From Kiritimatiellia bacterium (GTDB lineage: Bacteria > Verrucomicrobiota > Kiritimatiellia > RFP12 > JBMNHG01): 53,070 bases of DNA. The notes beneath the pieces were generated by a model. It saw nothing but the letters and a program-made list of their open reading frames with translations. It did no database searches and was not told the DNA's origin. The DNA lies in assembly GCA_050950285.1 (NCBI GenBank), contig JBMNHG010000004.1:124001-177070 (forward strand). Reading direction: 5' to 3'. Below, piece after piece: positions 16,614 to 25,771 of this stretch. Every line of letters starts with the position of its first letter. Within the stretch, counting starts at the first letter, position 1. Position numbers and translations under genes: made by a program.

Positions 16614-17747
16614 ATGAATCCCATCCCCCGATCCCGCGTCTGGCTCGACATCGACCTCCAGGCGCTTTGCGACAACTTCCGTGCCATCGCCCGCAAGGTC
16701 CCGGCCTGCAAGGTGATCGCCGTGCTCAAGGCGAACGCCTATGGCATGGGAGCCTCCGTCTATGCCGAGGTCCTCTCCCGGTGCGGCGCAGCGGGCTTCG
16801 GCGTAGCGGAACCCGCGGAAGCCTTTCCCCTCCTCCCGTACAAGGTGCCCGTCCAGATCCTGTCAAGCGTCCTCCCCGAGGAAATCGAAGACGCCGCCGC
16901 AGCCGGCATCCGCCTTCCCGTGACCGACCTGGAGACCGCGCGGAAGATCGAGCGCGCCGGCGCCCGGCTCGATCGCCGCGTCAAGGTGCATGTCAAAATC
17001 GATACCGGCATGGGACGCCTCGGCATCCAGCTGCGCGACGCGCGCGACGTCGTTTCCAAGCTGGCCACCCTCCCGCATGTCGAGATCGAAGGCATCTTCT
17101 CGCACTTCCCCAATGCCTATGCCGAGAACGACGAAGGAACCCGCCGGCAGGTCGCCGATTTCGTCTCGCTCATCCACGACCTCGAAGCCCGGGGGATCCA
17201 CATCCCGAAGCGCCACATCGCGAACTCCGACGGCATCCAGAATGTGGCCGAAGCGCATCTCCCGCCCTTCAACCACGTCCGCACCGGCATCAACCTGCAT
17301 GGGCTGTTCGACGACGAAGGCGCACGTACCGTCGACCTCCGCCCCGTGGCCGCGCTCCGCACCCGCCTCGTCTCCATCCGCCGCCTGCCGGCCGGCACGT
17401 CCATCGGATACGGCCGCACCTGCGTGCTCGAACGCGAAACCCTCGTGGGCGTCGTCGCCGCCGGATACGCCGACGGCATGCCGCTCGCCCTCTCGAACCA
17501 CGGCCGCATCCTCCTGCGCGGCCGCGCCTGCCCCGTGCTCGGGCGCATCTCGATGGACTACACCACCCTCTCCCTCGAAGCCGTTCCGGACGCGCAAGTG
17601 GGCGACATCGCGACCTGCATCGGACGCGACGGCGACCTCGAAATCGGCGTGAACGAATGGGCGCACCTCAAGAACACCCATCCCTACGAGGTGATCTGCG
17701 GCTTCGGCAATCGCGTCCAGCGCCACTACCATCCCCTCCACGCCTGA
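16614..17747 (+). CDS. alr: Alanine racemase
   Basis: AVLKANAYG PLP lysine, KIDTGMGRLG, GYADG, GRISMD. Confidence 0.95.
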   Translation: MNPIPRSRVWLDIDLQALCDNFRAIARKVPACKVIAVLKANAYGMGASVYAEVLSRCGAAGFGVAEPAEAFPLLPYKVPVQILSSVLPEEIEDAAAAGIRLPVTDLETARKIERAGARLDRRVKVHVKIDTGMGRLGIQLRDARDVVSKLATLPHVEIEGIFSHFPNAYAENDEGTRRQVADFVSLIHDLEARGIHIPKRHIANSDGIQNVAEAHLPPFNHVRTGINLHGLFDDEGARTVDLRPVAALRTRLVSIRRLPAGTSIGYGRTCVLERETLVGVVAAGYADGMPLALSNHGRILLRGRACPVLGRISMDYTTLSLEAVPDAQVGDIATCIGRDGDLEIGVNEWAHLKNTHPYEVICGFGNRVQRHYHPLHA

Positions 17748-17784: not shown

Positions 17785-18540
17785 ATGAACTCCGATTCCT
17801 CCAACGAACAGGGAGAGACCCGCCTGGACCGCACCCGCAGCCTCCTGGGCGATGCGGCGATGCGGCGGCTCGCGCGATCCCGCGTGCTCGTCGTGGGAGT
17901 CGGCGGCGTCGGCTCCTTCGCCGCGGAATGCCTGGCCCGTTCCGGGGTGGGGCGCCTCGTGCTCGCCGATCCGGATTCCGTGTGCCTTTCGAACCTCAAC
18001 CGCCAGCTCCAGGCGACCACCGCGACCCTCGGACGCCCCAAGGCGGAAGCCATGGCCGATCGCTTGCGCGACGTCGCGCCCGAACTCGATGTCCGCCCCG
18101 TCGTCGCCGCCTATTCCCCCGACCATCCGGACGCATTGCTCGATCCCGCACCCGATTTCGTGGTGGACGCCATCGACAGCCTCGGCGCCAAGTGCCACCT
18201 CCTCGCGACCTGCCGCGAGCGCGGAATCCCCGTGGTTACCTCCACCGGCTCCGCCGGACGAATCGACCCCTCGCGCGTTCGCGTGGACGACCTCGCCCGC
18301 ACCGACGTCGATCCGCTGGCCAAGATGGCGAGGAAACTCCTCCGCCGACGCTACCGTTTCCCCCCGCGCGGGCGATTCGGCATCCCGGCTGTCTTCTCCA
18401 CCGAAGATCCCAACGCACCGGACGCCCCCGGCGCCGTTCCCTCCGCCCCTTCCGCCCCGCGCGGCTCGATGGCCTGCGTTACGGGCGTCTTCGGGCTGAA
18501 CTGCGCGGCCATCGTCCTGCGCGCGCTCGCGGGACGCTGA
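17785..18540 (+). CDS. tcdA: tRNA threonylcarbamoyladenosine dehydratase (ThiF family)
   Basis: VGVGGVGS, SNLNRQ, VVDAID, DPLAK, VFSTE, GSMACVTGVFG. Confidence 0.85.
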   Translation: MNSDSSNEQGETRLDRTRSLLGDAAMRRLARSRVLVVGVGGVGSFAAECLARSGVGRLVLADPDSVCLSNLNRQLQATTATLGRPKAEAMADRLRDVAPELDVRPVVAAYSPDHPDALLDPAPDFVVDAIDSLGAKCHLLATCRERGIPVVTSTGSAGRIDPSRVRVDDLARTDVDPLAKMARKLLRRRYRFPPRGRFGIPAVFSTEDPNAPDAPGAVPSAPSAPRGSMACVTGVFGLNCAAIVLRALAGR

Positions 18541-18557
18541 CCTTCCCGGCTCGCCCC
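18428..18557 (+). repeat. 130-bp direct repeat, left copy (3' end of tcdA)
   Basis: Matches 24367..24496 with 8 mismatches by hand alignment. Confidence 0.9.
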
Positions 18558-18607
18558 GATGGCGTTTTGTGCTTGACGCCTTTCCACCTCCTTCGCATCA
18601 TGGCGGC

Positions 18608-21600
18608 ATGGATGGGGGGTCGGCTCGTCCCGCCGCCCCCCGGCATGCGGCAACGGTCTTTGCGGGAGTCTCCATGGCGGATTGTTTCCGAAGATTGCAC
18701 ACGCTCCGCTCCGCGCGGCCCGCCGCGGATCCGGCCATCCTGGTCGTCCTGGCCGCGGCCCCCCTGCTCCATGCCGCGGAAGCGCCGGACGACCCCCAGT
18801 GGCGGCAGGCCGCCGATCTGTATGGCAAGCGGCACTGGGCCGACGCCGAAAAGGCTTTCCTGGCCTATGCCAGGCGCTTCCCCGCCCCTCCACGCCGCGC
18901 GGACGCGCTGGTCGGGGCGGGCGCATGCAGCCTGATGCTGCACGACGCCCCCGCCGCCCGCCGCCACTTCGAGAAGGCGGCCTACGACGAGGATGCCCGG
19001 CGCAAGTCCCCCAAGGCCGTCGCGGAGGCCTTCGACCGGCTCCACGCGCTGCTTCTGGAGGAAGGGGCGTCGGCCGCCCGGCGCGCCCGCGTGCTCGACG
19101 ACTGCCGCCGGCGCCTTCCGGACTGTGCCGCGCTCCCGCGGATGCAGGAGCGCGAGGGCGACGCGCTGCTGGCCGCCGGCCTCCACCGCCAGGCGGCGGA
19201 CCGCTACATGTCGGCCGGCGCCGGGCTCTCCCCCGGCGGCACGAACACCCTCCGCCTGCTCCGCGGATGCTTTTCCGTCAGCCCGCCGCCGCTCGACGGG
19301 GCGGACGCCGCGCGGCTTGCCGAGGCGGTCCGGGCCAAGCCCTCCTGTTCCGCCGCCCTGTGCGGCCTGCTGTCCGGGCGCCGCGAAGGCTGGCTGGCCG
19401 AGGACGTCCGGGCGCGGCATCTGCTGGACTCCGGGAAGGCCTCCGAGGCCGCCGCCGCATGGGAAGAGATGCTCCGCCGCCGCCGCGGCCCGCCCGACCG
19501 CATCGCCTTCGCGCGCTGCGAGGCGTTGGCCGCCTGGAAGCCGGGGAAGGGCATCGAGGCGCTGGAGGAGTGGCTGGAGCGCTACAAGGACTCGCCGCTG
19601 CGCGAGCGCGCCGCCGCCTGCCACGCCCTGCTGCCGGCCCGCCATGGCGACCCGGCCGAGGCGGCATCCCGCCTCGGGGCCTTCCTCGGGGAATACCCCG
19701 GCAGCCGCTTCGCGCCCGAGGCCCGGCAGGCGCTGGCCAGGGCGCGCGGCGCATCGGACCGGCTGGAACAGCTCCAGGCGGCGCAGGCCGCCAAGGAGGA
19801 GAGGCGCCGGCGCGACCCGGCGTCGGCCGACCTCGAACGCGCCGAGTCGCTCCTCTCCCAGGGACGCCACGCCGACGCCGAAAAGGCCTTCCTGTCCTTC
19901 CGCGACCGCCGCCGCCATCCGCTGTGGGGGCGCGCCTGGCATGGCCTCGGCAAGGCCCGCCACGCCCGGGGCGACACGCAGGGCGCTCTCGCCGCCTGGG
20001 ACGACCTCTGGCGGCGCTCGCTGGCCGACACCAACGTCCTGTGCGCCGCCCGGGCCCGCCGCGCGGCGGGCGACGCCTGGCTCGAGGATCTCGGCGAGCC
20101 GGCCCGCGCCCTGAAGGCCTACGACGAAGCCGCGTCACGCACCGACTTTTCCGACCCCGCCTTCGACCTCAACCGCGGGCTCGCCCTGCTGATGCTCGGG
20201 CGCGCCCCGGAGGCCGCGGCCGTCTTCACCCGCCGCCGCGACGCGTCCGCCGGCGACAAGGCCGAGTTCCTGCGCTGGGACCGCCTCGCGAAGGAGTGCG
20301 CCGCCGGACGCCTGGAGCCGCCCCCGCGCGGCCTGCTCCCCGTCCAGCGCCGCGCCCGTACCGACCTGGCGATGGCCGACGCCCTCCTCGCGGCCGGCGA
20401 GCCGGCCCGCGCCCTGAGGCTCTACCGCCGCGCGTCCGCCCCCCTGGCGGGCCACGAGGGGGCCGACCGGTGCGACCTGGGCATGGCGCTCGCCCTGGCC
20501 GCCCTCGGCCGGCCGAAGGAGGCGCTCGCCCTCTACGGGCGTTTCACGGGCGATCACGGGCGCAGCCCGCTGGCCGCCGGAGCCCTGCTCCGCGCCGGCA
20601 CGCTCTGCGCCTCGCCCCGCGTGAACGACTTCAAAGGCGCCTGCCAGTGGTTCGCCCGGGTCGTCGAAAACCACCCCGGCACGCGCGAGGCCGAGGCGGC
20701 GGAGTTCTATGCCGCCACCCTCGCCTGGCGCGGGCGCAAGTGGGCCGAGGCCGAAAAACTCCACAAGGCCTTCGCCGCCAACCATCCCGGCTCGCCGCTG
20801 GCGCGCGTGGCCCTCGACGAGCGCCTCCCCGCCATCGCCAGGAAATCGCTGGAGGTGCCGACAGGCGGAGGGATCGACCGCACAAACACGGTCTACGTGG
20901 CTCCCGGCAGCCGCAAGCGCTCGGCCTTTCCGATCGTCAAGGAGGGCGCCTATAGCGCCTGCCTGGATATCCGCAGCGAACGGGCGTTCAAGGAGTCGCA
21001 CGTCGAGGATGTCGACCCGCGCGACGGCACCGCGCTCTGGACCGGGCCCACGGTGAAAAGCCCGTCCTGGCACCGCTACCACCTCTCCGACGCCTACTCC
21101 AGCCAGGAGTACGTGATGGTGCGGGGGACTTTCGCGGAGCCGTCCGGCCGAGGCGGCGGCGTCGGCGGCGGCCTGCCGCCCTTCCGCGTCACCGTTCCGT
21201 CGGTCGACGTCGACTGGGCGGGCTTTGCCGGTCCGGCGGACGAAAACGGGGAGGAGGCCCGCTTCGTCGTCGTGCCGCTCAACACCAACAAGGCGGACGA
21301 CATCCGCGGGATCAAGCTCCACGACCCCTTCGACGACGACCAGCGAAACGGTCGCCCCCGATTCCCGCATGGCAAGCCCGTCCATCCCGACATCACGCTC
21401 CATTGGGAGGCGGGGAACCCGCTCGCCCTGCTCGGGGGCACCACGGTTTACACGGACAAAATCGGGATCGACGCCGGGGAGGTCGCCTGGCCGCTGGATT
21501 ACGCCGTCATCCCGCGTCATTCGGCCATTTCCTTCAGGATATTCGCCAGGGGACAGGCTGACAACGTGACGGGCGAGAAGGCGATCGACACGATCCACGG

Positions 21601-23053
21601 GCGCATCGTCAACGTGGATATCGATGTGGACGCGAACCACGACGGTCAAATCAACGACACCGACGAGCCTTTGGAGGTGGACCCCGGCGGCTATGTGTGC
21701 GTCGGAACCAACAACCTGACGCCGGTCAAGCTGACGCTGGCCCCCGCCGGCCTGCCGGGCAGGCTGACCCTCTCGGCAACGATGGGCGGCCAGCGCATTA
21801 GAGTCTGGCGGAACGCCAACCGCACCGGCCAGATCGATCTGACCAAACAAGGCAATGTGGTTCCCGGCACGCTCTATGTCGAGGGCATTGCCCCCAGCGC
21901 GACCGCCCGCGACGTGGAACTCCGCCTCGAATACGACGAGAACCCGCCGGGCCAGAATAACAGCCTCTTCAAGTGCGAGGACAGGGTGAAGCTGACCGTC
22001 GTTCAAGTAGACTCCGTTGACGTCCATGCTTCCGACTCCGAGACGCACAAAATCCCTGCCGTCTTCGGGGCCGCACACGACGACCACTTCGTTTGCGTAA
22101 AAAATACCGGTGACATTGTCCTTAACGCCACAATATCCCCGAATGATCCGGAGGTTCTTGACCAGCTTGTCTGGGAAGCCGATGGCGCGACGATCACTTG
22201 TCCGGCGGTGGGAACGAACAAGCGGACAGCTAAGCTGTCGAGCGCAACTTCGCAAAAGATTCCGGTGCGAATTGAGGTTGGCGGATCTACGTGCTGGGAA
22301 GGGGCAACATGGGTTGTGTGGTCAAGCGGTCAGAAGGTAGCAGACCGTCCTATCCAAGCAGGAACCGCCACAATTCAAACAGGGGATGGAACTACGGGCC
22401 CAGGTATTCTTATTGGTGGAGGATACGACTTCAAGTTCACGATCACTCCAGCATCGCTTATTACCGACAGCGACCGTCCAGACCTTAGCGGAGCAAATCG
22501 TTACAGTGGATTCACGGTTGATCCCCCCGGTGCCGGAACGCTCCATTTCATTTTTGCCACCGATATTAAGGGTGGGGCGGCTGCAAAATGGGATGTAAGC
22601 CGCCGCATCAAAGCCAAAGTCCTTAATCCCCACCTATATGATCAGAACAAGCTCGATGTTGTTCCAGGAACCTTGTGGAGCAATCAGCCCGTAGCGACTG
22701 ATTTGCCAGTGGCTTTCCCTGGTGATGACCGCGCTGGCAATGACGACACGTCAACGGGGGATGAAAGCAACAATCCGTACTCCGCGTCGTCATCGCCACA
22801 TACTATTCATGCGGTTGGAGAAATTTCTTCCACGGATGCACCCAATCACCTGTTGCGGAATTCAACGGGAAGCGATGGCGACACGTTTGAGCTCAGATAT
22901 CACTTCGGAGAATTCGCCCGCGTGTTGCTGGCAGACCAATGGTACCGTTGCTCGGACTTCTTTGATTGGCGAGCGCATTTCAAGATCAGGCGACAAGCAG
23001 GGCAGTGGGTGAATGATGGTTCATCTGTTGCGTTGGACAATAGCGGCTTTTAG
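18608..23053 (+). CDS. Large exported mosaic protein: TPR N-terminus, beta-rich linker, variable lower-GC C-terminal domain (candidate polymorphic toxin)
   Basis: Signal-like AILVVLAAAPLLHA; TPR repeats (FLGEYPGSRFA, VVENHPGT); DVDANHDG motif; composition shift near 22000. Start 18608 (after TTGACG-N17-CATCAT) or 18674 (GGGAG RBS). Confidence 0.7.
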   Translation: MDGGSARPAAPRHAATVFAGVSMADCFRRLHTLRSARPAADPAILVVLAAAPLLHAAEAPDDPQWRQAADLYGKRHWADAEKAFLAYARRFPAPPRRADALVGAGACSLMLHDAPAARRHFEKAAYDEDARRKSPKAVAEAFDRLHALLLEEGASAARRARVLDDCRRRLPDCAALPRMQEREGDALLAAGLHRQAADRYMSAGAGLSPGGTNTLRLLRGCFSVSPPPLDGADAARLAEAVRAKPSCSAALCGLLSGRREGWLAEDVRARHLLDSGKASEAAAAWEEMLRRRRGPPDRIAFARCEALAAWKPGKGIEALEEWLERYKDSPLRERAAACHALLPARHGDPAEAASRLGAFLGEYPGSRFAPEARQALARARGASDRLEQLQAAQAAKEERRRRDPASADLERAESLLSQGRHADAEKAFLSFRDRRRHPLWGRAWHGLGKARHARGDTQGALAAWDDLWRRSLADTNVLCAARARRAAGDAWLEDLGEPARALKAYDEAASRTDFSDPAFDLNRGLALLMLGRAPEAAAVFTRRRDASAGDKAEFLRWDRLAKECAAGRLEPPPRGLLPVQRRARTDLAMADALLAAGEPARALRLYRRASAPLAGHEGADRCDLGMALALAALGRPKEALALYGRFTGDHGRSPLAAGALLRAGTLCASPRVNDFKGACQWFARVVENHPGTREAEAAEFYAATLAWRGRKWAEAEKLHKAFAANHPGSPLARVALDERLPAIARKSLEVPTGGGIDRTNTVYVAPGSRKRSAFPIVKEGAYSACLDIRSERAFKESHVEDVDPRDGTALWTGPTVKSPSWHRYHLSDAYSSQEYVMVRGTFAEPSGRGGGVGGGLPPFRVTVPSVDVDWAGFAGPADENGEEARFVVVPLNTNKADDIRGIKLHDPFDDDQRNGRPRFPHGKPVHPDITLHWEAGNPLALLGGTTVYTDKIGIDAGEVAWPLDYAVIPRHSAISFRIFARGQADNVTGEKAIDTIHGRIVNVDIDVDANHDGQINDTDEPLEVDPGGYVCVGTNNLTPVKLTLAPAGLPGRLTLSATMGGQRIRVWRNANRTGQIDLTKQGNVVPGTLYVEGIAPSATARDVELRLEYDENPPGQNNSLFKCEDRVKLTVVQVDSVDVHASDSETHKIPAVFGAAHDDHFVCVKNTGDIVLNATISPNDPEVLDQLVWEADGATITCPAVGTNKRTAKLSSATSQKIPVRIEVGGSTCWEGATWVVWSSGQKVADRPIQAGTATIQTGDGTTGPGILIGGGYDFKFTITPASLITDSDRPDLSGANRYSGFTVDPPGAGTLHFIFATDIKGGAAAKWDVSRRIKAKVLNPHLYDQNKLDVVPGTLWSNQPVATDLPVAFPGDDRAGNDDTSTGDESNNPYSASSSPHTIHAVGEISSTDAPNHLLRNSTGSDGDTFELRYHFGEFARVLLADQWYRCSDFFDWRAHFKIRRQAGQWVNDGSSVALDNSGF

Positions 23054-23070
23054 CGAAAGGAAGGTGATCC

Positions 23071-23577
23071 ATGATTCACAGGTGTATCATGGTGGCGGGT
23101 GCTATGCTCGGAAGTATTATCATGTGCAATGTGTTCGCTGAGACTCCAAAACAGCCAAGAGAGAAGTTGCAGAACCTCGCCGATTCTGGCGACACTCTTG
23201 GACGGAACTTGCTTTCTGCGATTCAAAAGGGAGATCGGTCTTCCATCAGGACGAATGCGCAATCGCTCGTGGCGGCGGATCATTTTGATGTAGTCGTCGA
23301 TCTTCTTCGTGATCCCTCGGACGTAGTCAAACAGGAGGCTGCTTCGGCGCTGGCGATGGTGAAGCGCAAAGCAGTCGCCGCTGCTTTACTGGATTCATAT
23401 GCGATGTTGGATGTCGCAGTCAGGGGTGGCGATGAGGCGCAACTGCTTCGGAAGAGAACCACAACTGTTTATGAAAATGCCCTTGCACAGATGACTGGCG
23501 TGCAAATCAATCAGGAATGGGATAGGGAACAAAAGCACAAGACGTTCCAGGCCGCAATTCGGCGCATGCCCGAGTAA
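23071..23577 (+). CDS. Small exported HEAT-repeat-like protein, candidate immunity protein
   Basis: GGAAGG RBS, signal peptide ending VFA-E, LLRDPSDVVKQEAASAL; same lower GC as upstream C-terminal domain. Confidence 0.65.
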   Translation: MIHRCIMVAGAMLGSIIMCNVFAETPKQPREKLQNLADSGDTLGRNLLSAIQKGDRSSIRTNAQSLVAADHFDVVVDLLRDPSDVVKQEAASALAMVKRKAVAAALLDSYAMLDVAVRGGDEAQLLRKRTTTVYENALAQMTGVQINQEWDREQKHKTFQAAIRRMPE

Positions 23578-23797
23578 TGTCCATGGAAACTGCCTTCCTT
23601 CCCGCCCCGAGCCTGTCCGCGTCATCTGCTTACGCACAGGAAAAAGAAGGAGAGCCATCAGGGAAATTACGAAATGGGAAACTAGGGGACAGGGCTCGCT
23701 CCGATTCTCCGCCGGATGCCGGTGCGAACTCGGCGAAAACGTAGAAAACATGCGCCTAGCCGCCGACCCGGCCAGACGCGGAAAGAGTGATTCGAAC

Positions 23798-24151
23798 ATG
23801 GGAAACGACTCGTTCTCCCTGATGAAAAGCGGAAAGCTGTACCTCTGCACCGACCCGGCGCTCATGGCGCTCCAGTCCCAATGCATGGAACGGCAATACG
23901 ACTACAACAGGACGCGCCCGCGCGAAACGGCGCGGCGCACGGAACTGCTCCGCGGGATTTTCGGCGCCGTCGGCAAGAACTGCTGTTTCGAACCGCCCCT
24001 GCACGCCAACTGGGGGATCAACACCCGCGTCGGCGACGGCGTATACGCGAATTTCAACCTGACGCTCGTGGACGACGCCGACGTGGAAATCGGCTCCTTC
24101 ACGATGATCGGGCCGAACGTCGTCATCGCGACCGCGCAGCATCCGGTCGAC
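23798..24151 (+). pseudogene. N-terminal fragment of maltose/galactoside O-acetyltransferase (Maa/LacA family)
   Basis: MKSGKLY...EPPLHANWG...YANFNLTLVDD...IGPNVVIATAQHPVD, then homology stops. Confidence 0.8.
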
Positions 24152-24329
24152 GCCGACGGCGACGGCGCGATCGACGACGCCGACGAGCCCTTGGAGGTGG
24201 ACCCCGGCGGCTATGTCTGCGTCTGCACGAACAACCTGACCCCGATCATGCTCACGCTTCAGCCCGCCGGACTGACCGGGCAGGCTGACCCTCTCGGCGA
24301 CGATGGGTGGGGACCGAATCCGCGTCTGG
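24146..24329 (+). pseudogene. Diverged second copy of the linker domain of the 18608..23053 protein
   Basis: VDADGDGAIDDADEPLEVDPGGYVCVCTNNLTP...RLTLSATMGGDRIRVW matches 21626..21808; one extra A at 24275. Confidence 0.85.
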
Positions 24330-24366
24330 TGGGACGCCGGGCGCATGATCGAAGTGCCACTGACCA

Positions 24367-24496
24367 CCGGCGCCGTCCCTTCCGGCCCTTCCGCCCCGCG
24401 CGGCTCGATGGCCTGCGTCACGGGCGTTTTCGGGCTGAACTGCGCGTCCATCGTCCTGCGCGCGCTCGCGGGACGCTGACCCCCCCGGCTCGCCCC
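24367..24496 (+). repeat. 130-bp direct repeat, right copy (duplicated tcdA 3' end)
   Basis: Encodes ...GSMACVTGVFGLNCASIVLRALAGR* as in tcdA. Confidence 0.9.
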
Positions 24497-24546: not shown

Positions 24547-24637
24547 ATCTTTCGGGGTGCTACGCGGCACAGACGCCGCGATGCTGAGATCAAACCCGAT
24601 GAAACCTGATCAGGGTAATGCCTGCGGAGGGAAAAGG
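24547..24637 (+). ncRNA. TPP (THI-box) riboswitch
   Basis: GGGGTGC...GCTGAGA..ACCC..GAAACCTGATCAGGGTAATGCCTGCGGAGGG; 3' P1 strand overlaps the RBS, suggesting translational control. Confidence 0.93.
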
Positions 24638-25771
24638 ATGAAAACCGGTGTCTTCACCAATGGGTTGATCTGGTTCGGCGCAGCGGTCTCCATCGCGGAG
24701 ATGGAGGCGGGATTCTCCATGGGCGGAAACGTCGCCGCCCTTGTGCTTGGACACCTGTTCGGCGGGTGCATGCTCTACGGCGCAGGGTTGGTCGGAGCGA
24801 CCACCGGCCGGTGCGCGATGGAGACAACCGCTGCGACGTTTGGCCGCCCCGGAATGCGCTTCTTCGCCTTCCTCAATCTCTTGCAGCTCGTCGGCTGGAC
24901 CGCCGTCATGATCGCGCAGGGCGCCTCCGCTATCGCGATGATCGGCAACTTCCCGCGATTGTTGCCCTACCTGATGCTGACGACACTCATCGGCGTGTGG
25001 ATCTTCGTCGCGTTCAGCGACCGCTTCCACCTCGCGACCTTGGCCGTGGGACTGCTCGCCGTGCTGTGCGTGGCGCTGACCTTCCGACTCGCCAGACTGC
25101 CACCGTCCACGACGAAGGCACTCCCGGTGTCTTCCGGCTTCTGGCCCGCCTTCGAGGTCTCCATCGCCATGCCCTTGTCGTGGCTCCCGTTGATTTCGGA
25201 TTACACCTCGACCGCGAAACGTCCATACGCCGCAACGGCGACCTCCACCATCGTCTACACCCTCACAAGCCTCTGGATGTACGCGCTGGGCATGCTTCTG
25301 GCGCACATCGGCGCCGAAAGCGTCGCGGACGGCATCGTCCGGGCCGGACTGGGCGTGGCGGGGCTGTTTGTCGTCGTCTTTTCCACGGTCACGACCACCT
25401 TCCTCGACGCCTATTCCGCCGGGGTGTCCGTGAAGTCCATCCTGCCCCGAATTCCGCCGCGACTGGCCGGGGTGGTTGTTTGCGCGATCGGCGGTGTACT
25501 TGCCATTCTCGGCATCCTCGACCGCTACATCGACTTCCTCTACTTCATCTCGTCCGTCTTTGCGCCGATGGCCGCAGTATTCTTGGTGGATCGATACCTC
25601 GTCCGGCGCGGGTTCAGAGTCTGGAACCTTCTGTCATGGGTCGCGGGGTTCGTCACGTACCACGTCGCCACGGCGTCGCCAATCGGACCAACCCTCTCGG
25701 CCATTGCCGTCTCCTCGACCCTGGCGCTGGGCGGATGGCTTCCCGGTTCCCAGCGCCGGGGGAGGAGATGA
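24638..25771 (+). CDS. cytX: Putative hydroxymethylpyrimidine transporter (NCS1 family)
   Basis: GLIWFGAAVSIAE, QLVGWTAVMI, MPLSWLPLISDYT, STVTTTFLDAYSAG; under a TPP riboswitch. Confidence 0.85.
   Translation: MKTGVFTNGLIWFGAAVSIAEMEAGFSMGGNVAALVLGHLFGGCMLYGAGLVGATTGRCAMETTAATFGRPGMRFFAFLNLLQLVGWTAVMIAQGASAIAMIGNFPRLLPYLMLTTLIGVWIFVAFSDRFHLATLAVGLLAVLCVALTFRLARLPPSTTKALPVSSGFWPAFEVSIAMPLSWLPLISDYTSTAKRPYAATATSTIVYTLTSLWMYALGMLLAHIGAESVADGIVRAGLGVAGLFVVVFSTVTTTFLDAYSAGVSVKSILPRIPPRLAGVVVCAIGGVLAILGILDRYIDFLYFISSVFAPMAAVFLVDRYLVRRGFRVWNLLSWVAGFVTYHVATASPIGPTLSAIAVSSTLALGGWLPGSQRRGRR

Follow-up and report, generated by a model that had tools for sequence, protein, structure and literature searches.

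In Rhs and CdiA-CT loci, the transition from the conserved to the variable part of the toxin lies at a short peptide motif, VENN or PxxxxDPxGL. The immunity proteins of the Tae/Tai, Tge/Tgi and Tle/Tli pairs carry signal peptides because the periplasm is where the cognate toxins attack peptidoglycan or membranes. Colicins and pyocins are multi-domain proteins that are released, kill by their C-terminal domain and come with a cognate immunity gene. Colicins cross the outer membrane of the target by means of the toxin's own N-terminal domains; they are not known to be Sec-exported or kept as orphan arrays. Here we describe a two-gene locus on the forward strand of a 53,070-nt stretch of DNA (hereafter the window) from a Kiritimatiellia bacterium (contig JBMNHG010000004.1), which consists of a gene for a long protein with a tetratricopeptide repeat (TPR) region, P0001 (18569..23053), and a small partner gene, P0002 (23071..23577). 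We consider it likely that the locus belongs to a Sec-dependent polymorphic toxin-immunity family, being its expressed, full-length copy; the C-terminal module (CT) of P0001 is the candidate toxin and P0002 the candidate immunity protein.

The first-pass annotation of this DNA had presented the system as undescribed. Since the sections of Zhang et al. (2012; PMC3482391) drawn on here define polymorphic toxins by the same hallmarks, this kind of system is already known and catalogued, and the claim can be kept for its modules only. The same sections list Sec- and type II secretion system (T2SS)-dependent polymorphic toxins with TPR among their repeats, lineage-specific N-terminal domains including MAFB-N (in MafB of Neisseria) and Microscilla-N, and the immunity proteins Imm-HEAT and Imm-ank. 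Our locus resembles this Sec/T2SS class in its signal-like start, its lineage-restricted N-terminal region, the replacement of the CT by standalone cassettes and the candidate immunity gene downstream; by comparison with the class as a whole, all 13 partners examined here look exported. Unlike MafB loci, it has neither a MAFB-N/DUF1020 domain nor an upstream gene for a MafA-like lipoprotein, the place of which is taken by a ThiF-family gene; Pfam reported no match to MAFB-N/DUF1020 or to another named N-terminal domain in P0001, and in contrast to both MafB and Microscilla-N the conserved part consists of a TPR region of ~670 aa and an unnamed β-rich pre-toxin domain. What is new, as judged from the profile libraries, are the modules, i.e., the carrier, the junction motif, the CT family and the partner family, for which neither Pfam nor NCBIfam holds a model. 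In the open-access literature, our search found, among the papers listed, no description of the family in the window and no paper combining "kiritimatiell" with "polymorphic toxin."

With Rhs and CdiA loci the present one shares a sharp junction at a short peptide motif (here CEDRVKLTVV), orphan cassettes that keep a homology arm of the conserved region, and cargo of low GC content. Unlike them, P0001 has no RHS/YD repeats (no RHS_repeat match in Pfam at E<=0.1), no TPS domain and no FHA repeats in Pfam, and no CdiB gene is adjacent, the neighbours being genes for an alanine racemase, a ThiF-family protein and a permease. Pfam reported TPR families in P0001 and nothing else, so that the hallmarks RHS, PAAR, FHA and LXG are missing just as the first-pass annotation had noted. 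Moreover, a search for the sheath gene of type VI secretion systems (T6SS), aimed at this gene alone among T6SS genes, did not find VipB in the organism's own genome (4.05 Mb in 12 contigs, rated 99.35% complete). The logic of the periplasmic T6SS effector pairs may, by analogy, also apply to the exported partners described below; unlike T6SS effectors, P0001 is devoid of PAAR and has a Sec-type N-terminus, and its CT matches no such Pfam family. The likeness to colicins is an analogy drawn apart from any sequence comparison, which goes no further than to suggest a way for a secreted toxin into the periplasm of a neighbour. One relative of the CT, P0113, carries the Pfam domain eCIS_core (PF13699), which we take to be DUF4157. 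In toxins of extracellular contractile injection systems (eCIS), the passages of Geller et al. (2021; PMC8213781) used here place DUF4157, the "eCIS core domain," N-terminally and toxin domains C-terminally; P0113 has the same architecture, and the protein in the window has no such domain.

Exchange of the C-terminal module at CEDRVKLTVV

The junction, formed by the codons of CEDRVKLTVV, lies at 21974..22003 (residues 1136-1145). When the last 617 residues of P0001 were compared with the organism's own genome, 25 matches were obtained, and besides the self-match none extends past query residue 287, the junction being residue 268 of this query. A tblastn search with the whole of P0001 located four further arrays, at C2:106.7-124 kb, C2:288-298 kb, C8:160.5-172 kb, and C11:296-302 kb, and the motif C[EA]D[RV][VI][KR]L[TV]xx marks 14 junctions in the genome. 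In ungapped nucleotide comparison with the window copy, the 60 nt up to the end of the motif are 73-95% identical at all 13 other junctions, and the 60 nt past it are 18-42% identical, which equals background, at the same 13. The cassettes begin at differing points of the linker and all stop at one codon (alignment A3). Behind the 14 junctions stand ~11 distinct C-termini, ~10 of them besides that of the window; among 13 cassettes compared, a whole CT is held in common only by C2a_3b and C2a_4b (99%) and by C2b_3 and C11_2 (51%), and in a few others the common part is confined to a second pre-toxin copy of ~150 aa at the start of the CT. The small genes behind the junctions differ too, and have signal-peptide-like N-termini. 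Orphan cassettes of the four arrays are head-less and mostly promoter-less, with linkers of variable length.

The same exchange can be followed in other genomes from both sides of the junction. P0157, a metagenome protein of 1608 aa, is 95% identical to P0001 from residue 1144 to the last residue, and upstream of residue 1144 it has nothing alike, its N-terminus being of Glucodextran_B type; P0004 (1412 aa, with LTD and TSP3 modules) is ~91% identical from about residue 1148 and carries, ahead of the same CT, no more than a distant variant of the pre-toxin domain. Conversely, five linker relatives from other metagenomes, with 54-73% identity in the linker, carry four other CT types past the same motif (P0170, P0172/P0169, P0173, P0174). 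Pfam finds TPR in P0170, P0172, and P0174, and none in P0169, which is partial, or in P0173. The CT of P0170 is of the C2a_3b type (47% identity) and retains its GYSHG motif, P0172 and P0169 have one further type in common, P0173 carries the first half of the C2b_2 type, and P0174 has yet another, for which a sequence search of the PDB gave 0 matches; a resemblance of this last C-terminus to SLT-like domains was rejected, having no Pfam or PDB support. As a separate observation, the open reading frame (ORF) of P0172 continues in frame into an apparent downstream exported TPR protein, with a second signal-peptide-like segment and TPR matches at residues ~1256-1330, which means either that toxin and partner are fused in one gene or that the gene calling ran through.

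These comparisons establish, at the level of sequence, that recombination replaces the CT precisely at the codons of CEDRVKLTVV and that the CT arrives jointly with the small downstream gene. It had been proposed beforehand to examine whether the sequence after VKLTVV and the downstream gene vary together, and this is what was found at the 13 further junctions and in the TPR-linker relatives from other metagenomes. Likewise, the proposed pattern of a conserved N-terminus with an exchanged CT and partner was borne out, given that the same CT (91-95% identical) stands on unrelated N-termini and that the partner travels with the CT elsewhere.

GC content, measured in 300-nt intervals, follows the same division. 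It is 0.75-0.82 in intervals starting at 18700-20350, 0.63-0.71 in those starting at 20650-21700, and 0.51-0.56 across the CT and partner gene (starting at 22000-23500), compared to 0.66 for the whole contig and for the genome, in agreement with the three tiers and the lower-GC C-terminus of ~350 aa first noted in the gene; other cassettes are likewise low (0.49-0.59). P0001 is modular, being made up of a signal-like N-terminus, the ~670-aa TPR region, the β-rich linker with the pre-toxin domain at its end, and the CT.

P0001 is 1494 aa long when counted from a GTG, and the ATG at 18608 preferred in the first-pass annotation gives 1481 aa. The ATG at 18674 (MADCFRRLHTLRSARPAADPAILVVLAAAPLLHAAEA...) is the likelier start, for the paralogue at C2:106770 begins there and the resulting protein has a signal-peptide-like N-terminus (18674..18784), in which a basic n-region is followed by the hydrophobic AILVVLAAAPLL and then by HAAEA. 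This segment was judged by eye from the translation; the basic n-region and AILVVLAAAPLL are the candidate N-terminal trafficking determinant, and the hydrophobic part is missing from the short paralogues C8_1 and C11_0. The TPR region (18803..20812) is the GC peak of the gene and matches TPR_16 (E 9.6e-15) and other TPR families. In NCBIfam, residues 79-151 match TIGR02795 (YbgF-type TPR) with 72 bits, under the cut-off of 90 bits, and residues 686-748 match TIGR03302 (BamD-type TPR), also under the cut-off. The β-rich spacer and linker follow at 20813..22003, the 3′ part of which is the homology arm that orphan cassettes retain at varying length; a structure model of linker residues 760-1145 had a pLDDT of 34 and was not used. 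At the end of the linker lies the pre-toxin domain (21596..22003; DVDANHDG...PGG...LYVEG...CEDRVKLTVV), with many invariant columns in alignment A3. It is present whole or in part in the aligned cassettes, and a second copy is found inside several C-termini. Of 401 genomes sampled from the phylum, 9, including the own genome, encode large proteins that match the last ~120 aa of this domain, and the ESM Atlas gave no usable match to it.

The C-terminal family and its candidate exported partners

The CT, 349 aa after the junction, had been said to match no known motif. This is correct for the curated libraries, Pfam giving no match even at E<=1, but not beyond them, since an exhaustive HMMER search over 1.84 billion representatives returned 565 cluster representatives at E<=1e-3, including 132 at E<=1e-30; on these matches, the CT founds a large family that has no name in curated libraries. 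In the best 150 of the 565, which are 152 to 2619 aa long, the CT match is C-terminal. Pfam scans of these 150 were made at E<=1e-4 for 40, at E<=1 for 38 (39 with the CT of the window), and at E<=1e-3 for 72, and most of the N-terminal parts were surface-type modules or had no match. TSP3_bac occurs in 12 of the 150, and Beta_helix, Big, PKD, Calx-beta, LamG, β-propeller, and RCC1 modules are also fused to the CT. Toxin-associated modules were found in one protein each, namely RHS_repeat in P0099 (E 2.1e-9) and eCIS_core in P0113 (530 aa; residues 74-151, E 6.1e-32, with the CT at 209-530). LysM is present in 2 of 39 relatives, OmpA in 1 of 39 and 2 of 72, and PG_binding_1 in P0159, according to its precomputed annotation, and in one weak match (E 0.16). 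The PHROGs endolysin and transglycosylase families, with two members each in alignment A1, were rejected as a guide to CT activity and attributed to the LysM domains of those members.

Numbered as in alignment A1, the invariant columns of the family are W201, D202, G250, D253, R311, and another three Trp; N251, D252, P263, and Y264 are conserved at 90% or more, D283, E308, and others are nearly invariant, and the alignment has no invariant His or Cys. The GNDD and NPY motifs pointed out in the first-pass annotation are thus among the most conserved columns. The family is patchy in its distribution, with 3 of the 401 sampled phylum genomes carrying a CT (the own genome counted), and it also occurs in metagenome-assembled genomes labelled Luteolibacter and Blastochloris. 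A search of genome contigs with a single protein gave two loci, and a scan of metagenome contigs one short locus.

The AlphaFold2 model of the CT, built on a 39-row alignment, is all-β, with a pLDDT of 96.3 and a pTM of 0.91. In this model, the first sub-domain (21989..22321; model residues 1-111) is predicted to be a Big_2/filamin-like Ig domain, and the second (22322..23050; residues 112-354), a larger all-β domain, is the candidate effector. All conserved motifs (KWDxSR, GNDD, NNPY, FxEFxR) fall in the second sub-domain, which ends in DNxGF-COOH. Sequence searches of the PDB gave 0 matches with the CT profile (A1) at E<=1 and 0 with the profile of the second sub-domain (A4) at E<=10, and a fold search with the whole CT found no solved toxin or enzyme that resembles it convincingly. 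The best ESM Atlas score was 0.82, with Ig-like leads only.

P0002 (168 aa) starts 17 nt past the stop codon of P0001, as noted at first sight, and is a candidate periplasmic immunity protein. The signal-like, HEAT-like character assigned to it was also recovered, in that it has an N-terminal hydrophobic segment behind a basic residue and a weak match to HEAT_2 (E 5.1e-4, 20.7 bits vs. a cut-off of 27.7). A word-based search found three relatives of 93, 77, and 45% identity, and the 45% one (P0156) carries HEAT_2 (PF13646). At CT loci in other records, a small gene with a signal-peptide- or lipoprotein-like start lies within <=20 nt in 5 of 5 cases, and tblastn identifies homologues of P0002 directly downstream of the CT in L013 (40%) and L014 (36%). 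Of the 401 genomes, the partner profile matched three, which are those with the CT, and the matches to the two lie next to each other; because two of the three had supplied rows to the profile, what this adds is the absence from all others.

In the organism's own arrays, 13 of 13 downstream genes examined encode an N-terminal hydrophobic segment after a basic residue, which agrees with the earlier suggestion of an exported partner and would fit an action of the CT in the envelope. Above the Pfam cut-offs, three of them match HEAT_2 (two also HEAT_PBS) and one ankyrin. No pair of complete partners is alike by BLASTP, the sole match being a 99% fragment copy of another cassette's partner. Adjacency of the candidate immunity genes to the CT and co-variation with it were both observed.

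Proposed function and competing explanations

P0001 probably crosses the inner membrane by Sec and would be released by a type II or some other route, after which the CT would damage the envelope of neighbouring bacteria; the exported HEAT-like partner would bind the CT in the periplasm of the producer and thereby protect it. Recombination between the linker of an orphan cassette and that of the expressed gene would then bring a different toxin-immunity pair into use. As for the target, our guess is peptidoglycan, because relatives of the CT are fused to LysM, OmpA-like, and PG_binding_1 modules, and this is the least certain step of the proposal. The genome has six secretin genes, and its sole ShlB-type gene (C11:338899) is tens of kb off the nearest array and unlinked. 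A bolder version, which we regard as unlikely, would make the TPR region and β-rich linker a self-contained, bacteriocin-like import device that works without type V, VI, or VII secretion systems, in which a YbgF/CpoB-like TPR engages envelope machinery of the neighbour (e.g., Tol-Pal) and brings ~11 interchangeable cargoes to the periplasm, the cargo in the window belonging to a new, widespread all-β family of peptidoglycan-directed toxins that has no solved relative.

Several results weigh against a toxin-immunity system. No delivery machine is linked to the locus, and the window itself holds no orphan CT, just a linker stub of 221 nt. The predicted fold of the CT does not confirm a toxin and would also suit a binding domain, with S-layer, intimin, invasin, and phage-tail proteins, at middling Z, as nearest structural neighbours; most relatives of the CT stand on giant Ig, β-helix, or TSP3 surface-type proteins, where a binding tip would fit as well. 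Enzyme-like strings in other cassettes (HExxH, QCGAW) are without profile support, Transglut_core scoring E 0.11 only, and the HExxH of C2b_1 and C2b_2 was dropped because it is lost in the BLASTP alignment with the relative P0173. Among the partners, those in L016 and L017 are exported and HEAT-like and have no tblastn link to P0002, the one in L035 is an unrelated lipoprotein-like protein, likewise without such a link, and those of C2b_3 and C11_2 show no BLASTP similarity despite 51% identity of their CTs.

Part of this evidence would be explained by a variable surface adhesin, in which TPR region and linker form a stalk, the tip is swapped by cassettes in the way of antigenic variation from silent cassettes, and the downstream gene encodes a tip-specific chaperone or anchor. 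Phage tail-fibre tips co-vary with their chaperones as cassettes in just this manner, and the Ig-like and β-sandwich fold of the CT, its S-layer, intimin, invasin, and phage-tail neighbours, the lack of an invariant His or Cys in the family, and the place of relatives at the end of giant proteins that contain Big, Beta_helix, TSP3, LamG, PKD, and Calx-beta modules would all suit it. An adhesin-like CT fold is one half of an outcome that the first-pass annotation had named as contrary to its proposal, and the model has this look. We nevertheless think an adhesin rather unlikely, as the same CT stands behind RHS repeats and the toxin marker eCIS_core/DUF4157, the partners are exported proteins of the HEAT/ankyrin type, which is a known immunity type, and the CT of P0170 retains at 47% identity a GYSHG that resembles a nucleophile elbow and suggests enzymes among the cargoes. 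Even less probable is a non-antagonistic exoenzyme or periplasmic cell-wall remodeller on a TPR scaffold, with the partner as an inhibitor or steric foldase comparable to lipase-specific foldases: the below-cut-off resemblance of the TPR region to periplasmic YbgF- and BamD-type proteins, the LysM, OmpA, and PG_binding_1 fusions, and helical-repeat partners exported to the same compartment speak for it, yet 14 junctions with ~11 unrelated C-termini are not expected of a housekeeping enzyme, nor are cassettes that are mostly head-less or frame-broken and of foreign GC, a CT found patchily in 3 of 401 phylum genomes, or 91-95% identical copies of it on unrelated proteins. Finally, the system could be as we propose with the CT acting as a β-pore-forming toxin on membranes instead of peptidoglycan, for which the very long strands of its all-β domain could be cited along with Foldseek matches to staphylococcal γ-hemolysin, leukocidin, and α-hemolysin chains (E ~7e-4 to 5e-3). 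These matches were rejected because their TM-scores are 0.17-0.22, with a root-mean-square deviation of 18-21 Å, and hemolysin-type chains are missing from the best 50 rows of the Z-ranked re-alignment; since the peptidoglycan-binding fusions of CT relatives point elsewhere too, a pore-forming CT seems highly improbable.

A member of the Planctomycetes-Verrucomicrobia-Chlamydiae (PVC) group in which no T6SS sheath gene was found maintains a large arsenal of toxin candidates, with 14 junctions at five loci and ~11 types of cargo within 4 Mb. The candidates would be exported by Sec and exchange their cargo like cartridges, and the protector genes beside them all look periplasmic. Three modules are defined, namely the pre-toxin domain with its junction, a CT family of at least 565 clusters, and a HEAT-like partner family. 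The CT, which other proteins carry in fusion with RHS, eCIS, and peptidoglycan-binding modules, is on that account a good candidate for a new antibacterial activity.

The island, the other copies, and the environment

A 133-nt direct repeat brackets the two genes in a 5.9-kb island, all features of which are on the forward strand. Its left copy (18425..18557) takes in the 3′ end of the ThiF-family gene as well as the spacer that precedes the toxin gene, its right copy (24364..24496) is 93% identical to the left, and no further copy was found in the own genome. Downstream of P0002 lies a truncated gene of the maltose acetyltransferase type, P0003 (23750..24145), with ~130 N-terminal codons and a Mac capping motif at residues 25-75 (E 2.2e-14), of which the genome contains no other copy. 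This remnant is joined in frame to the linker stub (24146..24366), which has no CT behind it and abuts the right repeat; the stub is 80% identical to 21626-21824, and its best match in the genome is C2:293112-293331 (88%). No integrase was seen among the annotated genes inside the island, which looks like the scar of an insertion, or of a Campbell-type integration followed by deletion. Upstream, the ThiF-family gene (17785..18540; Pfam ThiF) is preceded by an alanine racemase gene outside the island (16614-17747); past the right repeat, the first ordinary gene, which is outside the system, encodes a cytosine/purine-type permease (24626..25771, forward strand; Transp_cyt_pur, E 1.1e-7), and an FAD oxidoreductase is a further flanking gene. 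The stub, the repeats, and the four further arrays had escaped the first-pass annotation, all descriptive statements of which proved correct.

A "head" consisting of the 5′ leader and first codons (18551..18700) is 95-97% identical in nucleotide sequence across five loci, with blastn copies at C2:106646, C2:287987, C11:296136, and C8:160527. The paralogue at C2:106770 is 94% identical to P0001 over residues 11-1131 and carries an extra C in a run of C, 45 nt before the junction (L009:4540-4570; C2:~110040-110070), a frame change that may reflect a genuine pseudogene, a switch prone to slippage, or an error of the assembly. The copy at C2:288 kb has an internal deletion and an apparent short tandem duplication by which the frame is shifted, and the copy on C11 has several frame breaks. 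Because these other head-bearing copies are truncated or frame-broken, the gene in the window is the only intact full-length one found in the genome, and the remaining copies look like orphan or decaying cassettes. In the short forms on C8 and C11, the first ~19 residues are fused straight to the linker, and these forms are therefore without the hydrophobic signal part. Three head-bearing loci (L011:1031-1150, L012:1260-1320, L010:1096-1150) in fact have an identical left breakpoint, where the first ~18-19 codons (MA[DG]CFRKLHTLRSARLAA) abut the linker or mid-TPR sequence and the hydrophobic part is gone.

Among the cassettes, the C2a_1 C-terminus is frame-broken too, because its match to DUF7689 is split over two ORFs (L009:5694-6005 and L009:4436-5785), such that profile positions 7-44 end one of them and positions 77-118 lie in the ORF that follows. 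Of 11 ORFs that bear a CT or lie beside one, NCBIfam matched just one, with TSP3-type scores under the threshold, and a sequence search of the PDB with the C2b_1 CT returned chance GCN5 rows only. A DDE_Tnp_1 transposase gene lies on the reverse strand within the C2 array (L009:9921-11660). The ends of C2 (1080112-1081679) and C8 (832939-834503) are reverse-complement copies of one 1568-nt sequence (99.2% identical), which carries a 49-residue fragment of a P0002-like gene and, beside it, a peptide string that also occurs near the C2 transposase locus and looks like the end of an insertion sequence. Contig C9 (5854 bases) has a GC content of 0.34, compared to 0.58-0.67 in all others, and may be foreign or a contaminant.

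Sequencing runs were examined as contigs, in which rare recombinants are invisible. Among the Logan matches listed, contigs with the stretch come from 20 runs in 19 studies of anaerobic digesters, bioreactors, landfill, and wastewater, and none of the runs is RNA; because metagenome contigs from such communities hold the stretch, the system may shape competition in them. In run X1, which may be the source sample, a contig of 2236 nt spans 21970-24205 with zero differences, and the linker bins are 5-12 times as deep as the flanks, which is what a repeat in several copies should give.

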